Positions 28,801 to 64,000 of a stretch of DNA of 64,000 nt are shown in pieces. Source of the DNA: a virus (Duplodnaviria; Caudoviricetes); the IMG/VR virus record IMGVR_UViG_3300035208_001913, positions 30,994 through 94,993 of that record; one strand, 5' to 3'. The position numbers were made by a program, and so were the translations under genes. Position 1 is the first letter of the stretch. Every line of letters starts with the position of its first letter. The notes below the pieces were generated by a model. The model did no database searches and was not told where the DNA came from. It saw nothing but the letters and a program-made list of their open reading frames with translations.

Positions 28801-30085
28801 ATTATTTTAATTTAATTTCTGTTACTATATATAGTGGTTATATATATAATGTTGTCTTGGTTGCTTAACCAGTATCACATTTTAAATGAATTTCCTTTAT
28901 AATTACACTTACTTACCGGAACATTTAGCCAAATTATGAAGGATTTATACTCTAATTTACCATATATTGGTAATATTCTATATAAAGTCATAGTTGTTAC
29001 CTTCATAAATTTAGAAAGTGCTTTCTTATTTGTTGTCAACAGGACATCTTTACTATCTAAATTGACACAAACATATTGAATTTCTACTTTTATCATAGTA
29101 ATGTTGTATTGGTTAGAGTACAAAGATAACACTTTTATTCATATAAACATCTATTTATTACTTATTATAATACTATTATATATAAGCATTAGTTGTGATA
29201 TAGCCTATTATAGTCCTTTACATTGGATGTGCTGCGCACTAATATTGAATAGAGTTATATTACATTAGTTATGTACTACTATATATTGTTATAAAAGGCT
29301 ATAGATGTATATAATAGTATAATTATAATATTGTGTGTAGTAATATACTATATGATAATATGATTGGTTGTTTATCTTAAATGGGTTAATACGTAAGTTG
29401 TTTATTTATTATTATGGTAGTAGATATCAGAATGATATTTATGTTTGTTCGATTCCAATAATAGTGGCTAAAATTTAGAGCTGGTGGCAACAGTGTAATT
29501 CAGCGTATATAATATGAATATTTTATATGTAAAAAAAGTAGGTGATGGATTAAATTATAGGGATATATATTCTTTTGATTTATATTCATTTAATGATTTA
29601 TTTGATAAGATAACTGAAGGCTTAACAGTTAAGATACTAACTGAAAAGGAATTAAATGATATGAAAGGAGGTGCATAATGTTTGGTGATTTTGATGTATA
29701 TGATAATGAGTGTACTGCTTGTTCAGCTAGTGATGCTCAGTTTGAAGCATGGATTGATAGACGTATTACAAAATGGCGAAAACTTTATTATAGATTACGT
29801 AAAAGGTAATGATAGAGAACTTTATTCTTAATGAAGAGGACTTGGCTCCGCTCTTAAATGAGTGGGGCTTAGATGTATTAATATATGATTTTAGAGAGAA
29901 TTTCATGAGTTCTATTATGTATATAGGACATGATATAAGCATATTGCTGGCTTTATGGAAGAGTCAGTTACTTGAAGCATATTATAATAACTGCAATCAA
30001 TTACGATTGGCAGTGTAATGTATAAGAGAATGATGAGCACACGATTAAACAGCTTAAACTACTGCTGTGCTTGTTGTTCTCTTTA

Positions 30086-30157
30086 AGATATATATTGTAA
30101 TGGAAGCATGACACTCTTTGAAGTGTTAGTATCTGGTTCGAGTCCAGATTATATCAC
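30086..30157 (+). tRNA. tRNA-like element, Gln(TTG)-type, irregular
   Basis: Acceptor gatata/tatatc; D loop aatgg; gacac-tctttgaa-gtgtt anticodon arm with 8-nt loop; T arm tctgg-ttcgagt-ccaga. Confidence 0.5.
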
Positions 30158-31501
30158 AAATTTAATACTAATTATTAATTTAAAATATAAAATAAAATGA
30201 AAACAAAATTTGCAATAACAAATAAAGCAACAGGTTTTATTGTTGCTTTACTTGAAAACTTTGTGCATGTTGATTTGCATGAAGATTTTGAATTATGCCA
30301 AATTAATGAAAACTGCCATATTGAGGGTGAATTTTTGATTTGGGATAATTAAAAAATAAATAACAATATAATCTCTTATCCTTCTACTAAACGTTCTTTT
30401 AGTTATTATTCACATAAGAATCAATTATTTAATAACTTTATATAAATATTGATTATGTCTGTTAACAGAACTATTATCAATTAAAAACTTGTGGGTAATG
30501 TAGAAGTGATAAGAGATTTTTTTTTATTGCCTTAGATGGTACATCTGTTCGTTCAGAGATAAGGCACAAATAGCAATAATGCTATCTAATTAAAAACAAA
30601 TTACAATGAAGGTATTAAGATTTAAAAATGCTTTAGAAAGACTTAAAGCACAACTTACATCTGGAGTAAAAACAGATAAAAAAGAACAAGTAGGACAAAA
30701 GAAGTACAATACTGTTCCTCTTACTGATTCTGATAAAAAAAGAATTGAAAAAGAAATTGTTATTCTTGAAGAAAAGATTAAAAAATTTAATTAAAATAAA
30801 CTATAATTATGTATATAATTAACTTTTTAAACGAGCAACAAAAAGTTGCTATACAGGAACAAATCGACAAATTCGGTTTAGTACTTGTATCTAATGCTGT
30901 TACTAAAGAACAGTATATAATAAATAAAGCTAATAATAAGAAAGCTTTATTAGTTGTAAAACCTGATGGTAGTCTATGGCTTTGTCGTGGTATGCGACAG
31001 AATCATAAGGATTGGGATAACTTTACTGAATGGCTTACAAAATTAAATGATTATTTGGTTATTGTACCTAATAATTTATGGAGTGATGAATGTGCTAAAG
31101 GAACACATAATCATCCTTTTAATTTACTATTATTCCTTGAAAAGCATAAAATAGAAGAAACAAAAATTGTTAGAGCGATAAATGTGTTTAATCAGAAATA
31201 CAAATTATTATCTGATATGCCACTAAAAGCAATGAAATCTTCTTACCTTAGTATCCTAAAAGAAAAAGAATTAGTATGACAGAAATAATTAAACAAAACA
31301 GTTTAATACATCCACTTAGTATAAACTATTGTGGTGTATATGCGAAACGTCTTAGCCTATCACAGGCTGATGTTTTGCGAATCCTTAATCGTAAAGCTAT
31401 AAAATATCAAAAGGATTTTATTGATGCTGCTATGCGTTTTAAACGCAAACAATGTCTTAAAATAATTAATCAGTTCACAAAACAACTAAACTTAAATTAA
31501 A

Positions 31502-48561: not shown

Positions 48562-49283
48562 ACGAAGACACCTACCTATTAGGACTACTAATTGATAATG
48601 ACAGAGAAGTTGAGGAAGCAGAAAATAATAATGAATAAAAATTAAAAATTTAATAACATGAACAACATACAAATAGCAGCCAAACTTTACGATTGTAGAG
48701 ATACTGCAAAATCATTATTCAAAGAGGAATACAAAACAAAATTACAGCCTTATACTCATATTGTCAAAGAAGTAATGAAGGCTAATAAATTGGAAGTAAT
48801 ACCAGCGTTGTTGAAAATTAGTAAAACAGCAACTTATCAAGATAGCGGAATAGCACAAATGATGTTTATGGCTGCCGTTGAAGAACTAATTGAGCAACAT
48901 TAATATTTGCAATAACATGAAACTAAACCAATTCAAATACAAAACCGTTATAGATTTAGGCTTTATTGATGAAGTGAAAAGTGATACTAATTACTTCAAT
49001 GAGCATGGATACGAATATTCTATTATTACTAAAAAACTAACTAAACTCATTTATCTTGACTGGTGTAAAGAAACTAAAGAATGTGAGTTAATACGACTTG
49101 ACAACCTCAAAGAAATGAATATAGTAGCACGTTTACAAATCAGAGATATAAATCATCTGCACGAAGTAATTAATTTTTTTACTAATCAATTTCCGAATTA
49201 CGATTACTCAAAATTAGCATAATAAAAACAAATAACAATGTTTTGTGCCACATAACTTTTTTAAAACTAAAACCAAAGTAAAT

Positions 49284-49709
49284 ATGAAACCCACCCTCTA
49301 CATCATATCAATATTCCTCATCTTTGAATTTGGCAGAATATCAACTACCCTTGAAACATTGCCGATACAAAACACAGACACCCTGTTTTTCTCTACGGAG
49401 CTGAACGATGTCAACTTACTTAATGCTTTGGAGTGCTTCGAGGCGAAAGCAAGCCACATAGTCCTAAAACAAGCTAAATTTGAAAGTGGAAATTATACCT
49501 CACGTCTTGCAGTTGAGGATAAAAATATTTTCGGGCTTTTTAATTCTGCTTCGGGAAAATACTATATATTTGAACATTGGATTGAAAGCGTTTTGGCTTA
49601 CAAGAATTTAGTTCAGAGAAAATATAAGGGCGGTGATTATTATAAATTTCTTGAGGAGTTGCCCTATGCGAGTGATGGAAATTATTGCGGGAAGGTTAGG
49701 GGGATGTAA
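49284..49709 (+). CDS. Glucosaminidase/FlgJ-like (GH73-type) peptidoglycan hydrolase with N-terminal hydrophobic anchor
   Basis: QAKFESG...NIFGL...YASD.NY; ATG 49284 preferred as start; its TAA is the first TAAC core of array 1. Confidence 0.7.
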   Translation: MKPTLYIISIFLIFEFGRISTTLETLPIQNTDTLFFSTELNDVNLLNALECFEAKASHIVLKQAKFESGNYTSRLAVEDKNIFGLFNSASGKYYIFEHWIESVLAYKNLVQRKYKGGDYYKFLEELPYASDGNYCGKVRGM

Positions 49710-49843
49710 CGGTTGGTGGCTTGGCGAAGTACCGCCTTGCAGAATGTTCAAATATAGTACAAAGGCTTGTGGCGGTATTTTGCCAAACCACTGTTATAAG
49801 CCGTTTTTATTCGTGTTTGGCTTAACAATTTAATTTAAAAACA

Positions 49844-50149
49844 ATGTCAGTATCATTAAACGCAACAGCTTATTCAAGCAAAGAAAGCAAGGAATTTCAG
49901 AAACATTACAACGCTGTAAAATTCTGTATCGAAAACGAATTGTCGTTCCCAAAAGAAACCTCTGAATTTTTCAAAGGCAAACTTGGTGGCGATGATTTGG
50001 AAGACATTAAATCCGAAGCGATACTCGGTTATTTAGATAATGGGGTTTCAATTGAAATGCCTTTCAGATATTTCAGAGGTTCAGAAGTTCAAATCAATGT
50101 TTCTGAAATTCCGTCAGGTGTCGATTTAATTGTTGTGAAGCTGTCGTAA
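49844..50149 (+). CDS. Cassette M1 gene, hypothetical
   Basis: 101 aa, between gttataagccgtttt and aaaatggcttataac. Confidence 0.7.
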   Translation: MSVSLNATAYSSKESKEFQKHYNAVKFCIENELSFPKETSEFFKGKLGGDDLEDIKSEAILGYLDNGVSIEMPFRYFRGSEVQINVSEIPSGVDLIVVKLS

Positions 50150-50223
50150 AATGGCTTATAACGGATGTGTGTATGGCACGTTGCTTACACTTAACTTGAC
50201 TTGAAACACAAAACTTTAATAAT

Positions 50224-50400
50224 ATGGAAACAGATAATTTGAAACACGAAAAGCAATGTGCTATACACGATGTTATATACAGTCGTTATTTGGAAAAGAT
50301 TGAAAAAGAAAGGCGTGAAAAGCAGGTAATGTTAGACTTGTGGTATATGGCAACAAAAGGTAAGCAAGTTGTGTTGTGCGTTGGAAACGATTGTATATAA
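50224..50400 (+). CDS. Cassette M2 gene, 58 aa; not in the ORF track (copy at 56459-56635)
   Basis: METDNLKHEKQCAIHDVIYSRYLEKIEKERREKQVMLDLWYMATKGKQVVLCVGNDCI; starts in the hairpin loop and stops in TAAC. Confidence 0.6.
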   Translation: METDNLKHEKQCAIHDVIYSRYLEKIEKERREKQVMLDLWYMATKGKQVVLCVGNDCI

Positions 50401-51988
50401 CTACCCGCTAAATATAATAACATATTTTATATCTTTATTAAAAATAAAATCACTACTTTTTAAACCTATTATAAATAAATTACCCTTTTAAAATGAAAAT
50501 AATCTTTCAAATAGTCGTATCTAATGAAAAGGACACAATAATCGATAGTGTTAAAGTAATGATACCTATTAATGATATAGATAATAGCTTTACAAGGCTT
50601 AAATACCTATTAATTAAAAAATTCAATATCCCATCAAATTACACAATAGATTTTGGAGTTACAAATAATTATAAATTTGCAAAAATGAACTACATAGGAG
50701 CACGGCTAAGAAACGAAATAATATCAATAATCAAAGAAGTAAAAGAAAGCGGGCAAGATTACAGTCTTGACCTTATAGCAAGTAAGTTGCATAGTGAAGG
50801 TAGGATAAGCAAATGTCATTATAATAGGCTTAAAGAAGATGAGATGTTAAGAAAAAGAATTTTGAATAATGTAAATAAATAAATAAAATTATGAGATATT
50901 TAGTAAGTTTTTTAGAAAATAATATAAGAAAATCTTTTTATACGAACTGGTATGAAAGTTCTAACAACTTCGATATTGATTTAGATATGATTGTATTTGA
51001 TTTCTCAACTCATAAATTTAGTGTTGATGGTATTAACTGGATAGATATAGAAGAAGATCACTTGTAAATAAATAAAAATTATGAAAAAAGATAATCTATA
51101 TTTGCCGAGCAATGGGACTGAAGGTGATGGATTTATGTCTATATGGTGCGAAAACTGTAAAAAAGATACAATGCTTAGAGGCGGTGAAACACAATGTTCA
51201 ATACTTACTAATGCACTTGTTAAAGGATACGTAAAGCAATGGGTGTATATTGATAATGTACCTATTTGTACGTCATTTGTAAAAGTTGGTACTATACAAA
51301 AGCATAAGAAACGTATTGCTAAAAATCAAATAATAATAGGAGACTTATAAATTATGAAAACAACCTACTGTGGAGACACCACTATAAAATGCAGACATAG
51401 AGATAAAGACGTTTGCAAACAGACAAAAGATTGTAGTCTTAAAAAAGATTGTAGTCTTAAAATAAGTGAAAAAGAATTTGATGCAGAATGCGACCATTAC
51501 TTTCCTGCAACAAATAAAGGATACTTACCTTGTGAGTTTTGTGGTAAAATTAAACCTGAATAATTATGAAACTCCAAACAGGTAAAACGCTTACAGAGCT
51601 TGCAAGGCTCTATGAGATAGAGGCAAAATATAATGAATTATTAAAACAGTTAAAAAATGATTAGAATAGTAGGAAAAGTAATCGTTAAGACCATGCCAGC
51701 TTCATGTTCTGAATGTTCATTCATTCAAGAGGACTGGAAGTGTATATTAACCGGATACTTCTACACTTCTTATGTTGACAGAAATCCACTTTGTCCTCTT
51801 AAATCAAAAGATAATAAAAACAGGTGTTATTCGCCTAACTGCCAAAGAAATGCACCTGTAAATGATATATTTTGTAAAAAACATAGATAAATAATTAACC
51901 CTCTTAAAACCTTCTCACTTGTATAGGATAAGTGCACAGCGAAGCCGAAAACTGTATAGAGTAGGCAAAATTTTAAATAATTAAAAGT

Positions 51989-52960
51989 ATGGAAATAGAA
52001 AATGTATATTATCTGCAAAGTGGTAGAATATTTGTCGCTAAAACAGATGATAATAGATATATTGAATTTACCGAAATGAGAGACGTAAAGACTGATTCAA
52101 AAGAAAATGAAGAAGTTAGAAATACGCAGGACACACGAATAATTTGGAAGCATTTAGATAAGTTTACAAATAAATGGTTAATGACTGTTTCCACTCAAAT
52201 TGGGTGCACTCATAAATGTAAATTTTGCGATGTCTCATTATTAAAATTTGGCAGAAATTTAACAGAACATGAAATATGGTGGCAAATAGACCAAATTATA
52301 AAATGCACTCCTTACGTTACACAAACAAACAAAGCAAAGATAGGATTTGCCAGAATGGGTGAGCCTGCTCATAATTTTTTAAATGTTTCTGATATTATCT
52401 GCAATTTGAAAGGATATAAAGGGTTTAATTGGTTGCCTTGTTTTAATAGTATTTTACCGAATAAAACAATACAGGGGATAACTTCTACTGATATATTAAT
52501 GAGAATGATTAATATAAAGGAAAGTATTTATGATGGTTTTTTACATTTACAACTAAGTATAAATTCAACAGATGAACAGAAAAGAAAAGAGTTATTTGGG
52601 GGTGCTTCCGTTATGGAATTGGAAAATATTATAAACCTTGTTAATAAATCAAATATTTCAAATAGAAAAGTGACATTGAATTTTATCGTTATGAAAGGCG
52701 TTCCTGTTGATGTTTCTGTACTTAAAAAAATGAATATAAATTCAGATAAAATTATTGTCAAATTAATTCCTTTAAACCAAACTGATATTGCTCAAACATC
52801 AAATTTAGAAACATTTGCAAATTACTCAAATTACGAGGTATTACAGCAACTTAGAGACGATTTTAAAAAGGAAGGTATAGAAACTGTTGTAGATACTATT
52901 GCACGCTGTGAAGATGCCGGTTTATGTTGTGGACAAATAATACATACTCATTATGAATAA
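51989..52960 (+). CDS. RlmN/Cfr-like radical SAM protein (copy at 58224-59195)
   Basis: VSTQIGCTHKCKFC, RNL...EI..QI, MGEP, LIPLN, CGQ motifs. Confidence 0.8.
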   Translation: MEIENVYYLQSGRIFVAKTDDNRYIEFTEMRDVKTDSKENEEVRNTQDTRIIWKHLDKFTNKWLMTVSTQIGCTHKCKFCDVSLLKFGRNLTEHEIWWQIDQIIKCTPYVTQTNKAKIGFARMGEPAHNFLNVSDIICNLKGYKGFNWLPCFNSILPNKTIQGITSTDILMRMINIKESIYDGFLHLQLSINSTDEQKRKELFGGASVMELENIINLVNKSNISNRKVTLNFIVMKGVPVDVSVLKKMNINSDKIIVKLIPLNQTDIAQTSNLETFANYSNYEVLQQLRDDFKKEGIETVVDTIARCEDAGLCCGQIIHTHYE

Positions 52961-53609
52961 AAATATAAGTATAATTACAAATTTTGGATGTCGGGCAAAT
53001 TGTTGGTACTGTATATGGAAAGGACACCCCTACGAAAAAGTAAACCTTAAAACAGATTGGAATAAATTAGAAAACTTTTTATCAGAATATAAATGTAAGG
53101 GAAAAGTATCTGTTTCTGGCGGTGGTGATTGCCTTTATAGATATGATGAATTTGTAGGATGGTGGGTAAAATTATTACAAATTACTAATTCATTAAATAT
53201 AAAATTAGATATTCATACAAGAGAAAAATTTACAAAACAATCTTTTTGGAAAAATAATGTTAACCGTTGTGTATTTTCGAGTGATTTTTTTGATACTGAT
53301 AAAGAATGGTTTGAATATATAATAAATTTTACAAAACTTAGAATTACTCACGTTGTTACTGAATTTTCTACTATTGAAAATACACAAAAATATATTGATT
53401 TTTGCAAAGAAAATAATTGTCAATTTACATTAAAAGAATTAGTATCATTTAATGATAATGGCAATTATAAATTATTTAAAGAATTATTTAGTAATGAGTT
53501 TTTTCTCGATGGTGGTGATTATAATATTTACTATTTTCCTGACAATTCTATTCAAGAAAAATTTATTTCCTCAGCAACAACATCAAACAATAGCGGATAT
53601 AGATTATAA
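52953..53609 (+). CDS. Radical SAM protein (copy at 59188-59844)
   Basis: CxxxCxxC (GCRANCWYC), VSVSGGGD. Confidence 0.8.
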   Translation: MNKNISIITNFGCRANCWYCIWKGHPYEKVNLKTDWNKLENFLSEYKCKGKVSVSGGGDCLYRYDEFVGWWVKLLQITNSLNIKLDIHTREKFTKQSFWKNNVNRCVFSSDFFDTDKEWFEYIINFTKLRITHVVTEFSTIENTQKYIDFCKENNCQFTLKELVSFNDNGNYKLFKELFSNEFFLDGGDYNIYYFPDNSIQEKFISSATTSNNSGYRL

Positions 53610-54215
53610 CTTTCCAACAGCAAAACCAAAAATGAAGCTAACAATATTACCACCCCACCAGATTTTCTTTCTCTTAAGTTCACCAGCATACGCATTTTGA
53701 GCATTCTCATATCCCACCTGCCACCTGTCAGATTGCATCTGAATAACATTATTCTTTACCTGTAATGTATCTATTCTATTTCCCTGTATGTCTATAATAG
53801 AATCAGCTTTTGATAATTCTATACGAGTTAATTTCAATATGGTATCAGTTGCTATTGCCTGTTTTACTTGTTTTTCAGTAAAGCCAATAATAGTATCGTT
53901 TTCACGTGGCACTAATACAACAGAATCAAAAACAGCAATACAACTTTCTATGGTTTCCGCAAAAGTCAAACTATCTACATAAACAGTAACAGTCTTTATA
54001 GTTTCATGTACTTTGTTTTTAGATGTTTTAAGGCTGTCTATTGAATCTGATTGTAATTGTAGTACATTGTTTAATCTTGCAATAGTTATGCTGTCCTGTG
54101 AATTGTCAATAGTTGTGGTGGGCTTTTCAGTAAACTCATGCCAAGCGAATAAAGCAATTATAATTACTAAGGCTGTAATGATTATGTTTTTGAGGGTGTT
54201 ATTATTTATTGTCAT
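53604..54215 (-). CDS. Membrane-anchored coiled-coil protein, spanin-like candidate (copy at 59839-60450)
   Basis: N-terminal TM segment, coiled coil, C-terminal hydrophobic tail. Confidence 0.45.
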   Translation of the reverse strand: MTINNNTLKNIIITALVIIIALFAWHEFTEKPTTTIDNSQDSITIARLNNVLQLQSDSIDSLKTSKNKVHETIKTVTVYVDSLTFAETIESCIAVFDSVVLVPRENDTIIGFTEKQVKQAIATDTILKLTRIELSKADSIIDIQGNRIDTLQVKNNVIQMQSDRWQVGYENAQNAYAGELKRKKIWWGGNIVSFIFGFAVGKL

Positions 54216-54534
54216 TTTCTTCTTTTTTAGTATAAGTACCTGATGTTGTTATTATTGTATAGTCAATAGGTTTATAATCTGATGTTTGGCAACCGTACAT
54301 TACTACTGTTGGTTGGACGTTAGGAAATGGGTACGGTGGGTATGTTTTTTTAGGTAGTTTTTTTATCCAGTCCTCAATATTCTTTTCAGCTTCTTTGTCA
54401 GCTTTTGGCAAGTCATTTTCTGATACTTTTTCAAGTTCAGTAATAACATCATTGATTACTTCTTCTAAAGGTTTGTCCTTTGATACGGCTTTTAAATATC
54501 CTTTAATCCAAAAAATAAATTCTTTATATTTCAT
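54202..54534 (-). CDS. Hypothetical protein (copy at 60437-60769)
   Basis: 110 aa; TACATTTG promoter element at 54560-54567 on the minus strand. Confidence 0.6.
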   Translation of the reverse strand: MKYKEFIFWIKGYLKAVSKDKPLEEVINDVITELEKVSENDLPKADKEAEKNIEDWIKKLPKKTYPPYPFPNVQPTVVMYGCQTSDYKPIDYTIITTSGTYTKKEENDNK

Positions 54535-54599
54535 AATAAAATAATTTTAATATTTATTGCAAATGTAAGGAAAGTTTTTGTATTTTTGTAAAATAATAT

Positions 54600-54671
54600 A
54601 GCGAGGCGGTTGTTGGTTACCCGCAAGGCTCATAACCTTTGCTCTCGTGAGTTCGATTCTCACCCTCGCAA
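54600..54671 (+). tRNA. tRNA with CAT anticodon (Met/fMet or Ile2)
   Basis: gcgagg/cctcgc acceptor with 1:72 mismatch, aagg-ctcataa-cctt anticodon arm, gtgag-ttcgatt-ctcac T arm; no encoded CCA. Confidence 0.75.
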
Positions 54672-54673
54672 CT

Positions 54674-54703
54674 AAGCTCTTTATTGACGTAAGGAGCTTT
54701 TTT
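54674..54703 (+). terminator. Intrinsic terminator after the tRNA
   Basis: aagctc...gagctt hairpin followed by a T run. Confidence 0.6.
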
Positions 54704-54808
54704 ATTTGATTACAAACTCACTTTACCGTTGTTTTTTGCTTACTTTCCGCACCTATACTGCAATAGCTTATTTGATTGGAAAAATTAACAATTTTTTATT
54801 AAATTTAT

Positions 54809-54839
54809 TTTGATATATATAATATATATATTATCTTTG
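54809..54839 (+). promoter_or_regulatory. Bacteroidota promoter TTTG-N19-TATCTTTG heading cassette array 2 (copy at 61044-61074)
   Basis: Consensus elements ending 11 nt before the first TAAC (54850). Confidence 0.7.
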
Positions 54840-54907
54840 CTGAAATTATTAACTATTAGCGGTATATTGTTGGGATTTTTACGGATTAAAAACATAAATA
54901 TAATTAT

Positions 54908-55183
54908 ATGGACAAAAATGTATTAAAAGGCATAGCAGAAAGAAAACTTGAACACATGAGACACGGATGTTTTCGTGGCGGACTAAATCACTTCTTGGAC
55001 ACGGGTTCGATTAATGGCAGTTTTCTTGATGCCTTAAATGAATTAGCTGAAGAAATAGTAAAAACCTGCAATATACCGCCTGTTATAAAATCGGTTTGCG
55101 AGTTTTGTGGACACGAACATTTAATGCGTGGCAAAAATGGTGTGTGGTGTGAGGAATGCCTTAAAAAGCAAACTGTTTTATAA
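54908..55183 (+). CDS. Cassette M3 gene with C-terminal zinc ribbon (copy at 61143-61418)
   Basis: CEFC...CEEC; stop codon inside TAAC. Confidence 0.65.
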   Translation: MDKNVLKGIAERKLEHMRHGCFRGGLNHFLDTGSINGSFLDALNELAEEIVKTCNIPPVIKSVCEFCGHEHLMRGKNGVWCEECLKKQTVL

Positions 55184-55431
55184 CGGTGCGTGTATGAAAC
55201 GTGGTGGGATAGAAACCACCTAACTATCAAAATACAAATAACTTAATAGAATGGAACAAACTTTAAATAACGCAGAAACCCCACCATGTTTTATACACGG
55301 TGTGTGTGCCCCGTTTTTATTTAGAATTATTATAAATATACGATTAAATGTAAAATAATTGCTTTTTTATTTGGAAATTACAATTATTCGTTGTATATTT
55401 GTAGGGTAATAATAAATTAAAACTTTGAATT

Positions 55432-55794
55432 ATGAAAACGATAAAATGTTACAGATGCAACGGAACAGGAACAACACCACACAAACACATAGCCAATGGA
55501 GTATGCTTTGCTTGTGGAGGTTCTGGTATTCTTGAGTATAAAGATGATAGTTTTGAAAATAGTTTAATGTGGTTTTGCAAAGATGTTAGACCAACTATTA
55601 CAGATGGGTGCAGTTGCAAAATGATTAAAAATACAAGTTTTGAAGGACGTGGAGTTGATAAGGGTGGTGAGTTTATAGCAAAAAGAGTTGGTGAAAGCGT
55701 AATTTTTTGGAATAAAAAAGCAGGTGCAAACTGGCACTTTGATGTACCTATGACAGCAGTAGATTTAATGAAAAAACACTTTGTGAAAATATGA
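55432..55794 (+). CDS. Cassette M4 gene 1 with DnaJ-type CxxCxGxG zinc finger (copy at 61667-62029)
   Basis: CYRCNGTG...CFACGGSG; internal promoter at 55370-55401. Confidence 0.7.
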   Translation: MKTIKCYRCNGTGTTPHKHIANGVCFACGGSGILEYKDDSFENSLMWFCKDVRPTITDGCSCKMIKNTSFEGRGVDKGGEFIAKRVGESVIFWNKKAGANWHFDVPMTAVDLMKKHFVKI

Positions 55795-55988
55795 GAATAA
55801 TACTCGCAATATTTACAGATAGGTTTGAGGTTTACGGAAGCCTTAAACCTTTCTTTGAGCAATATCCGCAATATGCTGAACTCAAAGATAAAATTGATTA
55901 TACTATGTCTCGTAAAAAATTACCATTCGAGCATTCAGAATTTAAGTTACAACGGATGAACGTTCGGAGGTCTTTAAATGGGGTATAA
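55791..55988 (+). CDS. Cassette M4 gene 2, small putative DNA-binding protein (copy at 62026-62223)
   Basis: 65 aa, ATGA-coupled to gene 1; stop codon inside TAAC. Confidence 0.6.
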   Translation: MRIILAIFTDRFEVYGSLKPFFEQYPQYAELKDKIDYTMSRKKLPFEHSEFKLQRMNVRRSLNGV

Positions 55989-56017
55989 CGGTTCGCAAGT
56001 ATATTTAGTTGCGGATT

Positions 56018-56106
56018 TAGAAGCACAAAACTTTAAATTAAGATAAAATGAAAATAGAAGCACAAAACTTTAAATTAAGATAAAATGAAAATAGAAGCAC
56101 AAAACT
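56018..56106. repeat. 37-bp tandem repeat (about 2.4 copies) in the M5 hairpin loop
   Basis: tagaagcacaaaactttaaattaagataaaatgaaaa starting at 56018, 56055 and 56092 (partial). Confidence 0.85.
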
Positions 56107-56396
56107 CGGATAAACCACAGAACCCCCAATTGAGTAAGGGTGCTGTTATGTGCCGTACTTTTTCCAATATGTTCTTTTGGTTTGGAATACAACTATTTGA
56201 TAGCCGACTTAAAGAATATGGTGGGTTTAATCACTTTATCGCTGGTAAAATTTTCAGATGGAAATATTGCTATTTGTCAATTGCACTCCGTAAACAATGG
56301 CGATTTGAATGGATACACGAAAGCGATGATTATTACTATGACGGCTATCATAATAGCATTACAATTGGGTGTCTGCAAATCTCGTATGGCACATAA
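56085..56396 (+). CDS. Cassette M5 gene, hypothetical (copy at 62320-62631)
   Basis: 103 aa; starts in the loop and stops in TAAC. Confidence 0.65.
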   Translation: MKIEAQNSDKPQNPQLSKGAVMCRTFSNMFFWFGIQLFDSRLKEYGGFNHFIAGKIFRWKYCYLSIALRKQWRFEWIHESDDYYYDGYHNSITIGCLQISYGT

Positions 56397-59300
56397 CGGA
56401 TGTGTGTATGGCACGTTGCTTACACTTAACTTGACTTGAAACACAAAACTTTAATAATATGGAAACAGATAATTTGAAACACGAAAAGCAATGTGCTATA
56501 CACGATGTTATATACAGTCGTTATTTGGAAAAGATTGAAAAAGAAAGGCGTGAAAAGCAGGTAATGTTAGACTTGTGGTATATGGCAACAAAAGGTAAGC
56601 AAGTTGTGTTGTGCGTTGGAAACGATTGTATATAACTACCCGCTAAATATAATAACATATTTTATATCTTTATTAAAAATAAAATCACTACTTTTTAAAC
56701 CTATTATAAATAAATTACCCTTTTAAAATGAAAATAATCTTTCAAATAGTCGTATCTAATGAAAAGGACACAATAATCGATAGTGTTAAAGTAATGATAC
56801 CTATTAATGATATAGATAATAGCTTTACAAGGCTTAAATACCTATTAATTAAAAAATTCAATATCCCATCAAATTACACAATAGATTTTGGAGTTACAAA
56901 TAATTATAAATTTGCAAAAATGAACTACATAGGAGCACGGCTAAGAAACGAAATAATATCAATAATCAAAGAAGTAAAAGAAAGCGGGCAAGATTACAGT
57001 CTTGACCTTATAGCAAGTAAGTTGCATAGTGAAGGTAGGATAAGCAAATGTCATTATAATAGGCTTAAAGAAGATGAGATGTTAAGAAAAAGAATTTTGA
57101 ATAATGTAAATAAATAAATAAAATTATGAGATATTTAGTAAGTTTTTTAGAAAATAATATAAGAAAATCTTTTTATACGAACTGGTATGAAAGTTCTAAC
57201 AACTTCGATATTGATTTAGATATGATTGTATTTGATTTCTCAACTCATAAATTTAGTGTTGATGGTATTAACTGGATAGATATAGAAGAAGATCACTTGT
57301 AAATAAATAAAAATTATGAAAAAAGATAATCTATATTTGCCGAGCAATGGGACTGAAGGTGATGGATTTATGTCTATATGGTGCGAAAACTGTAAAAAAG
57401 ATACAATGCTTAGAGGCGGTGAAACACAATGTTCAATACTTACTAATGCACTTGTTAAAGGATACGTAAAGCAATGGGTGTATATTGATAATGTACCTAT
57501 TTGTACGTCATTTGTAAAAGTTGGTACTATACAAAAGCATAAGAAACGTATTGCTAAAAATCAAATAATAATAGGAGACTTATAAATTATGAAAACAACC
57601 TACTGTGGAGACACCACTATAAAATGCAGACATAGAGATAAAGACGTTTGCAAACAGACAAAAGATTGTAGTCTTAAAAAAGATTGTAGTCTTAAAATAA
57701 GTGAAAAAGAATTTGATGCAGAATGCGACCATTACTTTCCTGCAACAAATAAAGGATACTTACCTTGTGAGTTTTGTGGTAAAATTAAACCTGAATAATT
57801 ATGAAACTCCAAACAGGTAAAACGCTTACAGAGCTTGCAAGGCTCTATGAGATAGAGGCAAAATATAATGAATTATTAAAACAGTTAAAAAATGATTAGA
57901 ATAGTAGGAAAAGTAATCGTTAAGACCATGCCAGCTTCATGTTCTGAATGTTCATTCATTCAAGAGGACTGGAAGTGTATATTAACCGGATACTTCTACA
58001 CTTCTTATGTTGACAGAAATCCACTTTGTCCTCTTAAATCAAAAGATAATAAAAACAGGTGTTATTCGCCTAACTGCCAAAGAAATGCACCTGTAAATGA
58101 TATATTTTGTAAAAAACATAGATAAATAATTAACCCTCTTAAAACCTTCTCACTTGTATAGGATAAGTGCACAGCGAAGCCGAAAACTGTATAGAGTAGG
58201 CAAAATTTTAAATAATTAAAAGTATGGAAATAGAAAATGTATATTATCTGCAAAGTGGTAGAATATTTGTCGCTAAAACAGATGATAATAGATATATTGA
58301 ATTTACCGAAATGAGAGACGTAAAGACTGATTCAAAAGAAAATGAAGAAGTTAGAAATACGCAGGACACACGAATAATTTGGAAGCATTTAGATAAGTTT
58401 ACAAATAAATGGTTAATGACTGTTTCCACTCAAATTGGGTGCACTCATAAATGTAAATTTTGCGATGTCTCATTATTAAAATTTGGCAGAAATTTAACAG
58501 AACATGAAATATGGTGGCAAATAGACCAAATTATAAAATGCACTCCTTACGTTACACAAACAAACAAAGCAAAGATAGGATTTGCCAGAATGGGTGAGCC
58601 TGCTCATAATTTTTTAAATGTTTCTGATATTATCTGCAATTTGAAAGGATATAAAGGGTTTAATTGGTTGCCTTGTTTTAATAGTATTTTACCGAATAAA
58701 ACAATACAGGGGATAACTTCTACTGATATATTAATGAGAATGATTAATATAAAGGAAAGTATTTATGATGGTTTTTTACATTTACAACTAAGTATAAATT
58801 CAACAGATGAACAGAAAAGAAAAGAGTTATTTGGGGGTGCTTCCGTTATGGAATTGGAAAATATTATAAACCTTGTTAATAAATCAAATATTTCAAATAG
58901 AAAAGTGACATTGAATTTTATCGTTATGAAAGGCGTTCCTGTTGATGTTTCTGTACTTAAAAAAATGAATATAAATTCAGATAAAATTATTGTCAAATTA
59001 ATTCCTTTAAACCAAACTGATATTGCTCAAACATCAAATTTAGAAACATTTGCAAATTACTCAAATTACGAGGTATTACAGCAACTTAGAGACGATTTTA
59101 AAAAGGAAGGTATAGAAACTGTTGTAGATACTATTGCACGCTGTGAAGATGCCGGTTTATGTTGTGGACAAATAATACATACTCATTATGAATAAAAATA
59201 TAAGTATAATTACAAATTTTGGATGTCGGGCAAATTGTTGGTACTGTATATGGAAAGGACACCCCTACGAAAAAGTAAACCTTAAAACAGATTGGAATAA

Positions 59301-60834
59301 ATTAGAAAACTTTTTATCAGAATATAAATGTAAGGGAAAAGTATCTGTTTCTGGCGGTGGTGATTGCCTTTATAGATATGATGAATTTGTAGGATGGTGG
59401 GTAAAATTATTACAAATTACTAATTCATTAAATATAAAATTAGATATTCATACAAGAGAAAAATTTACAAAACAATCTTTTTGGAAAAATAATGTTAACC
59501 GTTGTGTATTTTCGAGTGATTTTTTTGATACTGATAAAGAATGGTTTGAATATATAATAAATTTTACAAAACTTAGAATTACTCACGTTGTTACTGAATT
59601 TTCTACTATTGAAAATACACAAAAATATATTGATTTTTGCAAAGAAAATAATTGTCAATTTACATTAAAAGAATTAGTATCATTTAATGATAATGGCAAT
59701 TATAAATTATTTAAAGAATTATTTAGTAATGAGTTTTTTCTCGATGGTGGTGATTATAATATTTACTATTTTCCTGACAATTCTATTCAAGAAAAATTTA
59801 TTTCCTCAGCAACAACATCAAACAATAGCGGATATAGATTATAACTTTCCAACAGCAAAACCAAAAATGAAGCTAACAATATTACCACCCCACCAGATTT
59901 TCTTTCTCTTAAGTTCACCAGCATACGCATTTTGAGCATTCTCATATCCCACCTGCCACCTGTCAGATTGCATCTGAATAACATTATTCTTTACCTGTAA
60001 TGTATCTATTCTATTTCCCTGTATGTCTATAATAGAATCAGCTTTTGATAATTCTATACGAGTTAATTTCAATATGGTATCAGTTGCTATTGCCTGTTTT
60101 ACTTGTTTTTCAGTAAAGCCAATAATAGTATCGTTTTCACGTGGCACTAATACAACAGAATCAAAAACAGCAATACAACTTTCTATGGTTTCCGCAAAAG
60201 TCAAACTATCTACATAAACAGTAACAGTCTTTATAGTTTCATGTACTTTGTTTTTAGATGTTTTAAGGCTGTCTATTGAATCTGATTGTAATTGTAGTAC
60301 ATTGTTTAATCTTGCAATAGTTATGCTGTCCTGTGAATTGTCAATAGTTGTGGTGGGCTTTTCAGTAAACTCATGCCAAGCGAATAAAGCAATTATAATT
60401 ACTAAGGCTGTAATGATTATGTTTTTGAGGGTGTTATTATTTATTGTCATTTTCTTCTTTTTTAGTATAAGTACCTGATGTTGTTATTATTGTATAGTCA
60501 ATAGGTTTATAATCTGATGTTTGGCAACCGTACATTACTACTGTTGGTTGGACGTTAGGAAATGGGTACGGTGGGTATGTTTTTTTAGGTAGTTTTTTTA
60601 TCCAGTCCTCAATATTCTTTTCAGCTTCTTTGTCAGCTTTTGGCAAGTCATTTTCTGATACTTTTTCAAGTTCAGTAATAACATCATTGATTACTTCTTC
60701 TAAAGGTTTGTCCTTTGATACGGCTTTTAAATATCCTTTAATCCAAAAAATAAATTCTTTATATTTCATAATAAAATAATTTTAATATTTATTGCAAATG
60801 TAAGGAAAGTTTTTGTATTTTTGTAAAATAATAT

Positions 60835-60906
60835 AGCGAGGCGGTTGTTGGTTACCCGCAAGGCTCATAACCTTTGCTCTCGTGAGTTCGATTCTCACCC
60901 TCGCAA
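60835..60906 (+). tRNA. tRNA(CAT), duplicate copy
   Basis: Identical to 54600-54671. Confidence 0.75.
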
Positions 60907-62698
60907 CTAAGCTCTTTATTGACGTAAGGAGCTTTTTTATTTGATTACAAACTCACTTTACCGTTGTTTTTTGCTTACTTTCCGCACCTATACTGCAATA
61001 GCTTATTTGATTGGAAAAATTAACAATTTTTTATTAAATTTATTTTGATATATATAATATATATATTATCTTTGCTGAAATTATTAACTATTAGCGGTAT
61101 ATTGTTGGGATTTTTACGGATTAAAAACATAAATATAATTATATGGACAAAAATGTATTAAAAGGCATAGCAGAAAGAAAACTTGAACACATGAGACACG
61201 GATGTTTTCGTGGCGGACTAAATCACTTCTTGGACACGGGTTCGATTAATGGCAGTTTTCTTGATGCCTTAAATGAATTAGCTGAAGAAATAGTAAAAAC
61301 CTGCAATATACCGCCTGTTATAAAATCGGTTTGCGAGTTTTGTGGACACGAACATTTAATGCGTGGCAAAAATGGTGTGTGGTGTGAGGAATGCCTTAAA
61401 AAGCAAACTGTTTTATAACGGTGCGTGTATGAAACGTGGTGGGATAGAAACCACCTAACTATCAAAATACAAATAACTTAATAGAATGGAACAAACTTTA
61501 AATAACGCAGAAACCCCACCATGTTTTATACACGGTGTGTGTGCCCCGTTTTTATTTAGAATTATTATAAATATACGATTAAATGTAAAATAATTGCTTT
61601 TTTATTTGGAAATTACAATTATTCGTTGTATATTTGTAGGGTAATAATAAATTAAAACTTTGAATTATGAAAACGATAAAATGTTACAGATGCAACGGAA
61701 CAGGAACAACACCACACAAACACATAGCCAATGGAGTATGCTTTGCTTGTGGAGGTTCTGGTATTCTTGAGTATAAAGATGATAGTTTTGAAAATAGTTT
61801 AATGTGGTTTTGCAAAGATGTTAGACCAACTATTACAGATGGGTGCAGTTGCAAAATGATTAAAAATACAAGTTTTGAAGGACGTGGAGTTGATAAGGGT
61901 GGTGAGTTTATAGCAAAAAGAGTTGGTGAAAGCGTAATTTTTTGGAATAAAAAAGCAGGTGCAAACTGGCACTTTGATGTACCTATGACAGCAGTAGATT
62001 TAATGAAAAAACACTTTGTGAAAATATGAGAATAATACTCGCAATATTTACAGATAGGTTTGAGGTTTACGGAAGCCTTAAACCTTTCTTTGAGCAATAT
62101 CCGCAATATGCTGAACTCAAAGATAAAATTGATTATACTATGTCTCGTAAAAAATTACCATTCGAGCATTCAGAATTTAAGTTACAACGGATGAACGTTC
62201 GGAGGTCTTTAAATGGGGTATAACGGTTCGCAAGTATATTTAGTTGCGGATTTAGAAGCACAAAACTTTAAATTAAGATAAAATGAAAATAGAAGCACAA
62301 AACTTTAAATTAAGATAAAATGAAAATAGAAGCACAAAACTCGGATAAACCACAGAACCCCCAATTGAGTAAGGGTGCTGTTATGTGCCGTACTTTTTCC
62401 AATATGTTCTTTTGGTTTGGAATACAACTATTTGATAGCCGACTTAAAGAATATGGTGGGTTTAATCACTTTATCGCTGGTAAAATTTTCAGATGGAAAT
62501 ATTGCTATTTGTCAATTGCACTCCGTAAACAATGGCGATTTGAATGGATACACGAAAGCGATGATTATTACTATGACGGCTATCATAATAGCATTACAAT
62601 TGGGTGTCTGCAAATCTCGTATGGCACATAACGTTTTGGCGGTTGGCGTTCGTTGCCGACTTTGAAACACGAAACTTTCACTTTAAAAAAAAATTGAT

Positions 62699-62986
62699 AT
62701 GGAAAACAAAACTTCAACAATCCACGAAAACGGCAATGACGCTAACCGCTTGTTACCTGCCGTTTTACTTGATATGAACGAAAGGTATTATTTTAAAACA
62801 CGAGGACAAGAACCTAATGTAGAATGCACTCAAAGATGTATGTTTAGAGATAACGGAATTTGTATAGGTTCAGCAGCTTGTCAAGAATGCGAACACCATT
62901 TTGAAAATAACATTGATGAATGGGGGTGCATTAGTTGGATTAAGTGTCGTAAGATTAACGAGGCTGTGTCCAAAAATGGCAGGTAA
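62699..62986 (+). CDS. Cassette M6 gene, Cys-rich
   Basis: 95 aa; starts in the loop, reads through GTTA (RLLPAV) and stops in TAAC. Confidence 0.7.
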   Translation: MENKTSTIHENGNDANRLLPAVLLDMNERYYFKTRGQEPNVECTQRCMFRDNGICIGSAACQECEHHFENNIDEWGCISWIKCRKINEAVSKNGR

Positions 62987-63104
62987 CGGATGGCGGTATG
63001 GTTTAGGCAACCAACCACTACTGCTAACTATGAAATACAAAATTATAATTGGTTGCTTAACTATACCGCTTGTTACCAACTGGGCGGTATTAAAACCAAA
63101 ATAA

Positions 63105-63533
63105 ATGATAACAGGAAATTATGAATTTGATTTGCAAATTGCTCAAACCCAAACAAGAGGAGCAAATAGTGAATATAGAAGATTGGCAAAAAAATTATCA
63201 ATTGACAAACCTTATAAAGATTTGTATCCATCAAGTGTACTACCAGATTTGGGTGCTTCATTTATTATTTATGCAAATGGAGCAACTTGGGTATTAGAAT
63301 GCTGGGTAAATTGGCGTTTATATTGGATTTCAAGCACTACAGATATACAAAATTTAAGAAGTGAAAACGCTGAATATAATTGTACTTGGTTACCCGACTA
63401 TTGGCATATAAGAAATATACGCAGAATAATATGGAAGCATCCAAATATGACTAATTGGACAAGTATTTTTTTGCCAACCAGAATAATTGAATTGTTATGG
63501 AAACTTGGTTTTAGATTTACATCGTGTCGTTAG
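63105..63533 (+). CDS. Cassette M7 gene, hypothetical
   Basis: 142 aa, between gttaccaac and gttggtaac. Confidence 0.65.
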   Translation: MITGNYEFDLQIAQTQTRGANSEYRRLAKKLSIDKPYKDLYPSSVLPDLGASFIIYANGATWVLECWVNWRLYWISSTTDIQNLRSENAEYNCTWLPDYWHIRNIRRIIWKHPNMTNWTSIFLPTRIIELLWKLGFRFTSCR

Positions 63534-63652
63534 CCTTGTTGGTAACGGTCGGCAATATGAAACGGTTGCCTTGTAGTTCGTTTCACAATATAGATGCAGT
63601 TTTCTGGCAACTGTTTTATATTGCTTGTTATAGCCAGTTAATTTTAAAAACT

Positions 63653-63868
63653 ATGTTAGTTAAAGACTTGAAAAAATTTTTGAATAAATTACCAGATGAC
63701 TTTGAAATAAAAATCATTACTGATAAACGAATACCAGACGATGTATTAAAAACAATGAGCTACCCTTACCCAATAGAGTCAAATAACTATGATTTTGATT
63801 TCGGTGATATAGGTTGGAGTTCAAAAATTACATCATTGAGAATAAAGTTGGACGAGCCACTTGATTAA
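63653..63868 (+). CDS. Cassette M8 gene, hypothetical (MLVKDLKKFLNKLPDD...)
   Basis: Likely ATG at 63653 after an A-rich initiation region; lies between gttatagccagttaat and attaattggctataac. Confidence 0.65.
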   Translation: MLVKDLKKFLNKLPDDFEIKIITDKRIPDDVLKTMSYPYPIESNNYDFDFGDIGWSSKITSLRIKLDEPLD

Positions 63869-64000
63869 TTGGCTATAACTATTTGCTAAATACAACAATT
63901 ATATATATAAAATAGTATAACTATATGATACCAAAAGAATTACAATACACTGAAAAAAAACTTTTAATGTTAACAAAACGACAAAAATCATCATTAGAAA

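Follow-up and report, generated by a model that had tools for sequence, protein, structure and literature searches.

We asked whether the nested inverted repeats near the end of a 64,000-nucleotide (nt) stretch of viral DNA define mobile gene cassettes, and if so, of which kind. The stretch (positions 30,994 to 94,993 of the IMG/VR record IMGVR_UViG_3300035208_001913; hereafter the window, with positions counted from its first letter) is the last 64 kb of a single viral contig of 94,993 base pairs (bp), which is complete according to the CheckV estimate. An earlier note on this DNA had described one array of eight modules in twelve copies, each with a hairpin between TAAC and GTTA followed by a gene within a second inverted repeat, and had proposed a cassette system similar to integrons. 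Integrons are the textbook bacterial device for stockpiling and reshuffling genes; they are commonly regarded as rare in Bacteroidota and as marginal in phages. We find that the region quite probably consists of two integrase-less arrays of mobile cassettes, which belong to a variant integron family common to the chromosomes of Bacteroidota and Ignavibacteria and to phages.

To locate the hairpins, the whole 95-kb genome was scanned for the structure TAAC-stem-loop-stem-GTTA with a duplex dG of -20 or lower. Such sites are found solely at window positions 49707, 50159, 54850, 62629, 62984 and 63543 and at the duplicate copies 56394 and 61085. The rest of the genome has none, and shuffled sequences yield 0 or 1, so the hairpins lie far beyond the shuffled controls. 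In all, seven TAAC...GTTA hairpins and five duplicate copies are present, confined to 49.7-63.9 kb. All of them are on the + strand, which is always the more stable one. They span 88-236 nt, and their stems (20-25 bp) are continuous, with an asymmetric spacer after TAAC (3-6 nt versus 1-3 nt). The arms differ between modules and pair within each of them, just as had been noticed before: cognate arm duplexes have energies of -27 to -37 kcal/mol, compared to a mean of -13.6 kcal/mol for non-cognate ones. All the arm pairs quoted in the earlier note are present in the sequence, while the common layout is incomplete in two cases, since the core of M4 is mutated to GTGT and the hairpin of M5 is decayed.

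Sites of the same family occur in many other viruses. A search of IMG/VR with one 18-nt pattern of the 5' arm matched 82 stretches, 80 of which were fetched. For 43 of these 80, the matched sequence forms the 5' arm of a hairpin of this kind; three or more sites are present in 30-35 loci, with lengths grouped around 88 and 125 nt. When 36 sites are aligned, 16 consensus pairs emerge, 14 of them with compensatory changes, and one G.U pair is kept in 34 of the 36 sites. Pairing was found in 87.9% of the cells of the alignment, compared to 54.1% for shuffles (0 of 500 reach the observed value) and 37-45% when the partner column is slid; note that folding energy served to select the sites for these statistics, so that the percentages of pairing are inflated, whereas the compensatory changes are not affected. 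We refer to the covariance model built from this alignment as R1; its training sites come mostly from other phages and include two sites of the window, J1 and J5. In the window, R1 finds sites with 31-103 bits, among them five outside the training set (74, 44, 43, 37 and 31 bits). The - strand gives no match, and no other match falls below E = 0.1; the E-values are rough. Furthermore, R1 finds 50 sites in Flavobacterium difficile (about 44 in one array that ends at a recombinase), 29 sites in an Ignavibacteria genome and, among 151 genomes sampled evenly from the Flavobacterium phylum, at least one site at E <= 1e-6 in 60. The covariance model, which had been suggested as a check, thus recovers both phage sites and the arrays of Flavobacterium and Ignavibacteria, and the family of TAACG...TGTTA hairpin cassettes is common to the chromosomes of Bacteroidota and Ignavibacteria and to their phages.

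The second inverted repeat follows the logic of integrons, with an AAC/GTT core. Each gene of the window is bracketed by its own inverted repeat of 14-17 nt, which extends the GTTA and TAAC cores. The bases after GTTA pair with the flank of the next TAAC and not with the flank of their own hairpin: the 10 nt after GTTA match the 10 nt before the next TAAC in 8-10 of 10 positions in all seven modules for which pairs had been quoted. This logic is found family-wide (92 viral and 30 bacterial cassettes). The family flank pairing is 7.74/10, as compared to 4.79 for non-cognate flanks and 4.83 for the hairpin's own flanks, and in bacterial arrays it reaches 8.13/10. On the other hand, a loose scan for flank pairs of 12 nt has no excess over shuffles (45 found, 40 expected) and a 14-nt scan a weak one (8 versus 5.2); the signal is clear only when a hairpin, or the register with neighbouring sites, is required.

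It had been predicted that a module excised from TAAC to TAAC and closed to a circle regenerates one continuous hairpin. Folded with DNA parameters, the virtual circle junctions do form one continuous helix, which is 6-10 kcal/mol more stable than in the array context for 6 of 7 cassettes (for example, -29.3 versus -20.5 in M1 and -38.3 versus -29.4 in M3); M5, which has the only decayed hairpin, does not gain. The genes themselves show where the cassette begins. Four window open reading frames (ORFs) start in a hairpin loop and read through GTT in frame. Since a crossover at GTTA would cut these ORFs, while a crossover at the 5' TAAC leaves the genes whole, the cassette runs from C through hairpin, GTTA and gene to TAA. 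Furthermore, homology blocks shared between different viral contigs begin at the 5' TAAC. The hairpin therefore travels upstream of its gene and together with it, as the earlier note had it. The features of the region are as follows (amino acids, aa; fold energies in kcal/mol).

49707 to 49796, + strand: site J0, attC-like hairpin heading M1; fold -37.8; R1 43 bits, E 8.7e-6, outside the training set. Its TAAC overlaps the stop codon of a glucosaminidase gene (49245-49709; Pfam Glucosaminidase).
49710 to 50161, + strand: cassette M1 (C...TAA), with flanking arms armB at 49797-49807 and armB' at 50148-50158; ORF 49844-50149, 101 aa, without family.
50159 to 50275, + strand: site J1, the M2 hairpin, 117 nt; R1 71.9 bits, in the training set. 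The loop has two GAAACAC..AAA boxes and the ATG of ORF 50224-50400.
50162 to 50400, + strand: cassette M2; its 58-aa ORF starts at the loop ATG, passes through GTT (Val, in frame) and ends in the TAA of the closing TAAC.
50398 to 50425, + strand: terminal junction of array A, TAAC followed by TACCCGCTAAATA; no hairpin after the junction; a position equivalent to attI.
50402 to 54849, both strands: inter-array backbone of about ten genes (PHROGs), with a radical-SAM pair and a tRNA-like element.
54850 to 55085, + strand: head hairpin of M3, 236 nt, first site of array B; duplex -22.8. The loop contains the first 58 codons of ORF 54908-55183. R1 misses this hairpin, and confidence in the site is lower.
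54853 to 55183, + strand: cassette M3; 91-aa ORF, zinc-ribbon-like, whose stop is the TAA of TAAC.
55181 to 55306, + strand: site J3, the M4 hairpin, with the 3' core GTGT; fold -33.1; R1 74 bits, E 1.7e-11, outside the training set.
55184 to 55988, + strand: cassette M4; ORFs 55432-55794 (120 aa, CXXCXGXG zinc-finger-like) and 55791-55988 (65 aa). Of its flanking repeat, the inner part alone is left (CCCCGTTT / AAATGGGG).
55986 to 56148, + strand: site J4, the decayed M5 hairpin, which lacks the long stem; R1 31.3 bits, E 0.0012.
55989 to 56396, + strand: cassette M5; ORF 56085-56396, 103 aa, whose stop is the TAA of TAAC.
56393 to 62627, + strand: second copy of the unit, identical to 50158-56392 (M2, terminal junction A, backbone, M3, M4, M5).
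62629 to 62755, + strand: site J5, the M6 hairpin, 127 nt; fold -36.6; R1 103 bits, in the training set. The loop has two boxes and an ATG at 62699.
62632 to 62986, + strand: cassette M6; ORF 62699-62986, 95 aa, Cys-rich.
62984 to 63075, + strand: site J6, the M7 hairpin, 92 nt; fold -30.5; R1 44.1 bits, E 5e-6, outside the training set.
62987 to 63545, + strand: cassette M7; ORF 63105-63533, 142 aa; no relatives of the protein were found in viral contigs.
63543 to 63630, + strand: site J7, the M8 hairpin, 88 nt; fold -31.0; R1 36.9 bits, E 1e-4, outside the training set.
63546 to 63878, + strand: cassette M8; ORF 63653-63868, 71 aa.
63876 to 63900, + strand: terminal junction of array B, TAAC followed by TATTTGCTAAATA; no recombinase downstream.

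We see that the single array described before is in fact two, array A with M1 and M2 (2 sites) and array B with M3 to M8 (6 sites), split by 4.4 kb of ordinary backbone; an alternative last cassette of array B, Mx, is found at the other end of the contig. The arrays have a GC (guanine plus cytosine) content of 34-36%, as compared to 28.7% in the stretch between them and 29.2% in the genome. We considered this stretch as a foreign island or giant cassette and rejected the idea, because its GC content is that of the backbone. Neither the structural scan nor R1 finds hairpin sites within 50402-54849, and the stretch is not a cassette, even though it lies inside the duplicated unit. After terminal junction B, a small ORF similar to ribbon-helix-helix proteins starts at 63926 and runs off the end of the contig; its full form is at contig positions 174-368. 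Within the loop of the decayed M5 hairpin, a 37-nt tandem unit (56018-56106, copy at 62253-62341) duplicates the loop box and an ATG.

The window phage itself has no recombinase of the expected kind, while some related arrays are accompanied by one. In three viral loci (L025, L042 and L068), a tyrosine recombinase of 263-278 aa with the domains Phage_integrase and SAM-like lies on the same strand directly after the last cassette, and its ATG is found 45-60 nt 3' of a terminal TAAC/TAYY junction. The same junction occurs twice in the window, at 50398 and 63876. The best family match of the recombinase is the XerA/integron-integrase model, below the cut-off. With the IntI model TIGR02249 it scores about 150 bits in two pieces (cut-off 265), and its best solved relative is XerA, while IntI4 (2a3v) aligns over residues 10-180 only. 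Judged by its sequence, the recombinase is Xer-like and, by the criteria that define the IntI family, not an IntI. The relatives of the recombinase in genome collections come mostly from Bacteroidota and Ignavibacteria (36-49% identity), and several of the bacterial ones adjoin arrays of 126-nt sites with the same flank logic.

Where recombination has taken place can be seen from the breakpoints, which were expected to fall on TAAC and do so in the window duplication, at the contig-end branch and in blocks shared by unrelated phage contigs. The window contains a perfect tandem duplication of 6,235 bp (50158-56392 = 56393-62627, zero mismatches), so that the twelve module copies are present as described, the repeats of M2 to M5 being this one event. 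The duplication junction has J1 as one partner and J5 as the other, and the only sequence common to the junctions M1/M2, M5/M2 and M5/M6 is ATAACG. The end of the contig (63874-64000, 127 nt) is identical to contig positions 122-248, and the contig opens with 121 nt from the 3' end of another cassette (Mx), to which the same TATAAC is attached, so that the assembly graph branches exactly at the core. Among homology blocks between different viral contigs, about 11 of 18 informative ends are at TAACG, and none of the informative ends compared is at GTTA. For example, L016 and L074 share a block of 3,020 bp with 99.97% identity and unrelated sequence on both sides. TAACG is invariant across sites, and it is within this pentamer, though not at a single bond, that the crossover can be placed.

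Could such breakpoints arise without a dedicated recombinase, by homologous or microhomology recombination between conserved regulatory hairpins? The PeSL (promoter-stem-loop) mobile regulatory cassettes of T4-type phages, reportedly described by Arbiol and colleagues in 2010, are said to consist of promoter-plus-terminator repeats and to recombine by homology. In both systems, small orphan genes lie in a plastic region of a virulent phage and stem-loops mark the boundaries of shuffling. The absence of a recombinase from the window phage and from most phages with arrays is what this explanation would predict, and related sites do share short stretches (such as TAACGG..GTGTATGG). We nevertheless think it unlikely. 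The arms differ between sites (non-cognate -13 versus -31 kcal/mol) and are cassette-specific, unlike PeSL repeats, and the duplication partners have no more than ATAACG in common. The breakpoints concentrate on one pentamer instead of spreading across sites of 90-125 nt, a recombinase accompanies the family, and flank pairing that is specific for each cassette is the product of a fixed crossover point.

The hairpins are not symmetric with regard to the strand. Among stem mismatches, G in the 5' arm opposite T occurs 121 times and any other type 1-17 times. In the stem, the G.T wobbles keep to two fixed places, which are five positions apart and lie some 17 and 22 nt away from TAAC; the pair is seen in J1, J3, J5, J6 and J7 and is shifted in J0. 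At 7 nt past GTTA, 48 of 54 viral cassettes and 19 bacterial ones have a third G.T, and in the window it is the one wobble, at the seventh position, of each of the flank pairs (7 of 7 modules). Since the opposite strand turns the G.T pairs into A.C mismatches, only one strand folds well. The ORFs of viral arrays, all the window ORFs included, read in the sense of this favoured strand (86:3), and those of bacterial arrays read antisense to it (18:1). Bacterial arrays thus have the classical polarity, and phage arrays are cargo-inverted, in agreement with the earlier remark that the genes are antisense to the normal attC polarity. The loops carry boxes (GCACAAAnnTTCAA), two direct copies in sites of about 125 nt and one in sites of about 88 nt, in phages as well as in bacteria (two-box loops are found, for example, at 62660-62730 of the window, L175:13398-13523 and L177:5456-5580). 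These boxes could be binding sites of a putative accessory protein. The idea that the loop motif is a promoter or leader of the phage was rejected, since the motif also occurs in bacterial sites whose genes lie on the other strand.

If the window were the only example, one might believe that the hairpins and long-range pairs act in mRNA (as processing signals, stabilisers or translational couplers), with G.T standing for G.U and the TAAC breakpoints as a side effect: the favoured strand is the sense strand of every window gene, start codons lie in loops and stop codons in TAAC, and wobbles of the G.U type dominate the stems. However, the bacterial arrays have the same strand asymmetry antisense to their ORFs and share the loop boxes, yet no gene starts there. 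From the opposite polarity in phages and bacteria together with the boxes of the bacterial sites, it follows that the asymmetry is a property of the site in DNA, as with attC, rather than of a transcript, and the polarity contrast argues against a role in mRNA. A tyrosine recombinase accompanies the arrays, homology blocks stop at the core, and Rfam has no family match at the sites. A function in mRNA is therefore very unlikely.

As to the assembly, it seems hardly credible that the duplication and the contig-end branch are artefacts without biological meaning. It is true that the two copies are 100% identical, that the end and start of the contig overlap by exactly 127 nt, which is typical for the largest k-mer, and that a cycle in the graph can be walked twice. 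However, a de Bruijn graph with k = 127 cannot join sequences via a repeat of 6 nt. Recombinant molecules hence exist in the sample, and 127-mers that span M5/M2 and Mx/terminal must exist in the reads. Both junctions are on the very core motif that bounds homology blocks in unrelated contigs, and even if the graph has a cycle here, what lies behind the junction is either a real recombinant or an excised circle. Judging from the assembled sequence, M5/M2 may stem from a duplication that is physically present, from a minority variant or from an excised 6.2-kb circle.

Acinetobacter pdif sites are 28-bp double-stranded XerC/XerD sites that flank modules, without hairpin and without strand asymmetry; there, as here, modules are bracketed by inverted recombinase sites and the Xer-type enzymes act in trans, while the sites of the window are hairpins of 88-236 nt with nested integron logic. 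We can all but dismiss that the gene-flanking repeats are double-stranded inversion sites (invertons) or Xer/dif-like boundaries of this type, in spite of the 14-17-bp inverted repeats around each gene and the Xer-like enzyme, as cassette ORFs are almost never flipped (86:3), the arms always differ at one position and in the same direction (G against A, a wobble on one strand only), and the repeats are contiguous with the hairpin site in an integron-like nesting.

Several observations weigh against mobile, integrase-less cassette arrays in the window. No match to PF00589 or PF01797 (Y1) was found in the 95-kb genome, and tblastn with the family recombinase was empty as well, so that for the window phage activity is read from assembly junctions alone. 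The duplication may be the assembler's walk round a cycle of the graph instead of a physical tandem copy. None of the window cassettes has a counterpart with at least 85% identity in the 80 viral loci, and megablast against phage records found no close relative of the window phage for a comparison of cassette order. The pairing percentages and the E-values have the limits given above. Finally, only 5 of 30 viral records with arrays carry the recombinase, two of these copies being decayed; among near-complete phage records with arrays, it is 1 of 6. The decayed copies are in G026 (C1:2268-3029) and G031 (C1:33151-33393), where one is interrupted by a TAA in frame, and of the other there remain 82 aa with two stops. 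On the other hand, since arrays without integrase are the rule in phages, the same numbers point to supply in trans, and the window array is probably served in this way, as far as the sequences tell.

How do the arrays compare to known systems? With classical and sedentary chromosomal integrons they share the hairpin sites bounded by AAC and GTT, the crossover in the core with each cassette carrying the complement of its own outer box, the arrays of single, promoterless-looking ORFs, the one strand that folds well, sites close to 88 and 125 nt in length and, in relatives of the window arrays, an Xer/IntI-clade tyrosine recombinase by the terminal junction. The attC repeats of Vibrio cholerae are roughly 123-126 nt long. 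There are also differences. The outer box has 7 nt in classical integrons and 14-17 nt here, longer than in classical attC as had been noted, and the outer 7-mers of the window, read from the sequence, do not fit RYYYAAC/GTTRRRY. Classical attC sites have extrahelical bases and an unpaired central spacer that select the bottom strand; here, an asymmetric spacer is present, and the stems run without interruption, bear G.T wobbles at three fixed positions and show no obvious extrahelical bases. The loops carry one or two GCACAAAnnTTCAA boxes. A classical integron has an adjacent IntI integrase with an extra domain specific to IntI; the recombinase of the family is short (263-278 aa) and matches the IntI profile in two pieces (150 versus 265 bits), and the window phage has none. 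Classical cassettes have their ORFs opposite to the folding (bottom) strand, while phage ORFs are on the folding strand and may start in the loop. If the sites are counted as attC, the window arrays qualify as clusters of attC sites lacking an integrase (CALIN; at least two attC in a row, integrase absent).

IS200/IS605 elements have a Y1 (HUH) transposase, subterminal hairpins and a tetranucleotide cleavage site. The window phage differs in having no PF01797 match, and flank pairing across genes is foreign to these elements. TnpB (IS605 OrfB) genes are found inside or beside arrays in the viral loci L043, L059 and L090, where they look like passengers.

Clusters of attC in virulent phages have been described before: 17 phages, among them the Polaribacter phage P12002L, with two sites per phage, and IntI1 recombined 5 of 6 sites, the exception being P12002L_attC1 (Qi et al. 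2023, PMC9892861). The likeness lies in an integrase-less site array in a phage of the virulent type, and the P12002L sites share the features of the family: they are on the gene strand, with TAACGGACGAGTGTATGG...ATACACATTGTTA and the same loop motif. P12002L_attC1 itself is a 49-nt site of the TAACG...TGTTA family (L010, about 30008-30056, on the - strand, which is the gene strand). P12002L_attC2 (L010 29175-29244) lies on the other strand, at the terminal junction that closes the phage's array behind its last cassette. R1 misses the short (56-58 nt) and long (205 nt) P12002L sites. Unlike the published sites, which were found with classical attC models, the window arrays were detected without such models.

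The suggestion that the system is undescribed therefore holds in part. Phage attC clusters were known, while the site family, its architecture, the recombinase and the spread in Bacteroidota are not accounted for by Qi et al. (2023, PMC9892861), almost no integrons are reported in Bacteroidetes with IntegronFinder 2.0, and our search of the literature found no description of the Bacteroidota variant or of this architecture. Several TAAC...GTTA hairpins lie within 10 kb of recombinase relatives in bacteria of candidate phyla (L125, Uhrbacteria) and in DPANN archaea (L148, Pacearchaeota), and they may link the site family to the published archaeal integrons.

A mechanism that would fit these observations can be outlined as follows. 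Each cassette would begin with the C of a TAAC and finish with the TAA of the following one, with a head hairpin, often with the start codon in its loop, then the gene, and at the end the closing 10-12-nt cassette-specific repeat, which extends the GTTA and TAAC cores. The + strand would fold as single-stranded DNA and be made competent by the three conserved G.T wobbles instead of extrahelical bases. The cut, within TAAC(G) and between TAA and C, would be made by a short Xer/IntI-clade tyrosine recombinase that the host or a co-infecting phage provides in trans. Recombination of site by site would excise, duplicate or delete cassettes, and recombination with the terminal TAAC/TAYY junction would append new ones to the array's end. 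What we infer here is that the substrate is single-stranded, which bond exactly is cleaved, that the enzyme is supplied in trans, and which functions the genes have. A more far-reaching reading, which we put forward tentatively and hold at somewhat less than an even chance, is that Bacteroidota phages run a cargo-inverted version of the host's variant integron, in which each cassette, with the hairpin at its head and the start codon in the loop, would be an expression unit complete in itself. The cassettes would be shuffled as single-stranded DNA during infection by a short Xer-like recombinase of the host, with the three G.T wobbles as strand code in place of extrahelical bases and with the 6.2-kb duplication and Mx as snapshots of the activity in a natural population of crAss-like phages.

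The phage had been called crAss-like, and this stands with the qualification that it is a distant one. Its TerL is about 27% identical to terminases of crAss-like and Flavobacterium phages, and the gene that precedes the arrays has its closest relatives in human-gut crAss-like contigs of roughly 100 kb (about 39% identity), at loci that are free of arrays. Public runs with DNA of the window phage are groundwater and landfill metagenomes, which include the source groundwater run and others that cover 82-96% of the stretch. Judging by these matches, "distant, environmental crAss-like phage" is a fair label.

Some further observations concern the backbone. Between 51989 and 53609 there are two adjacent radical-SAM-like genes (phrog_24834 and phrog_17662). 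Directly upstream of the first (51989-52960) is a sub-threshold match to the DUF805b RNA motif (51936-51967, copy at 58171-58202; 26.8 bits, gathering score 35.6). A radical-SAM gene is also found as cargo in the arrays of L016 and L074, unrelated to the window pair. The intergenic tRNA-like element ahead of array B is a 3' half (T-arm and acceptor-like end; 54609-54674, copy at 60844-60909) with a weak match to Rfam tmRNA (15 bits, E 0.015), where ARAGORN calls no tRNA. Elsewhere in the window, at 30087-30157, ARAGORN calls a tRNA of undetermined identity with a two-base anticodon (tt).

Apart from weak zinc-finger hints, the cassette ORFs belong to no Pfam or PHROG family. In related phage arrays, DNA methyltransferases are a recurrent cargo. 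The cassette genes of the window are all orphans, and it is this cargo that suggests a role in counter-defence, which the methyltransferase-rich pool of the related arrays probably serves. If the arrays are what we think they are, a major phylum and its viruses would hold a large and mostly uncharted pool of cassettes, and phages would be able to borrow a recombinase of the host to remodel their accessory genes. Furthermore, the fixed G.T wobbles would provide a simple and testable rule for how a folded-DNA site chooses its strand.

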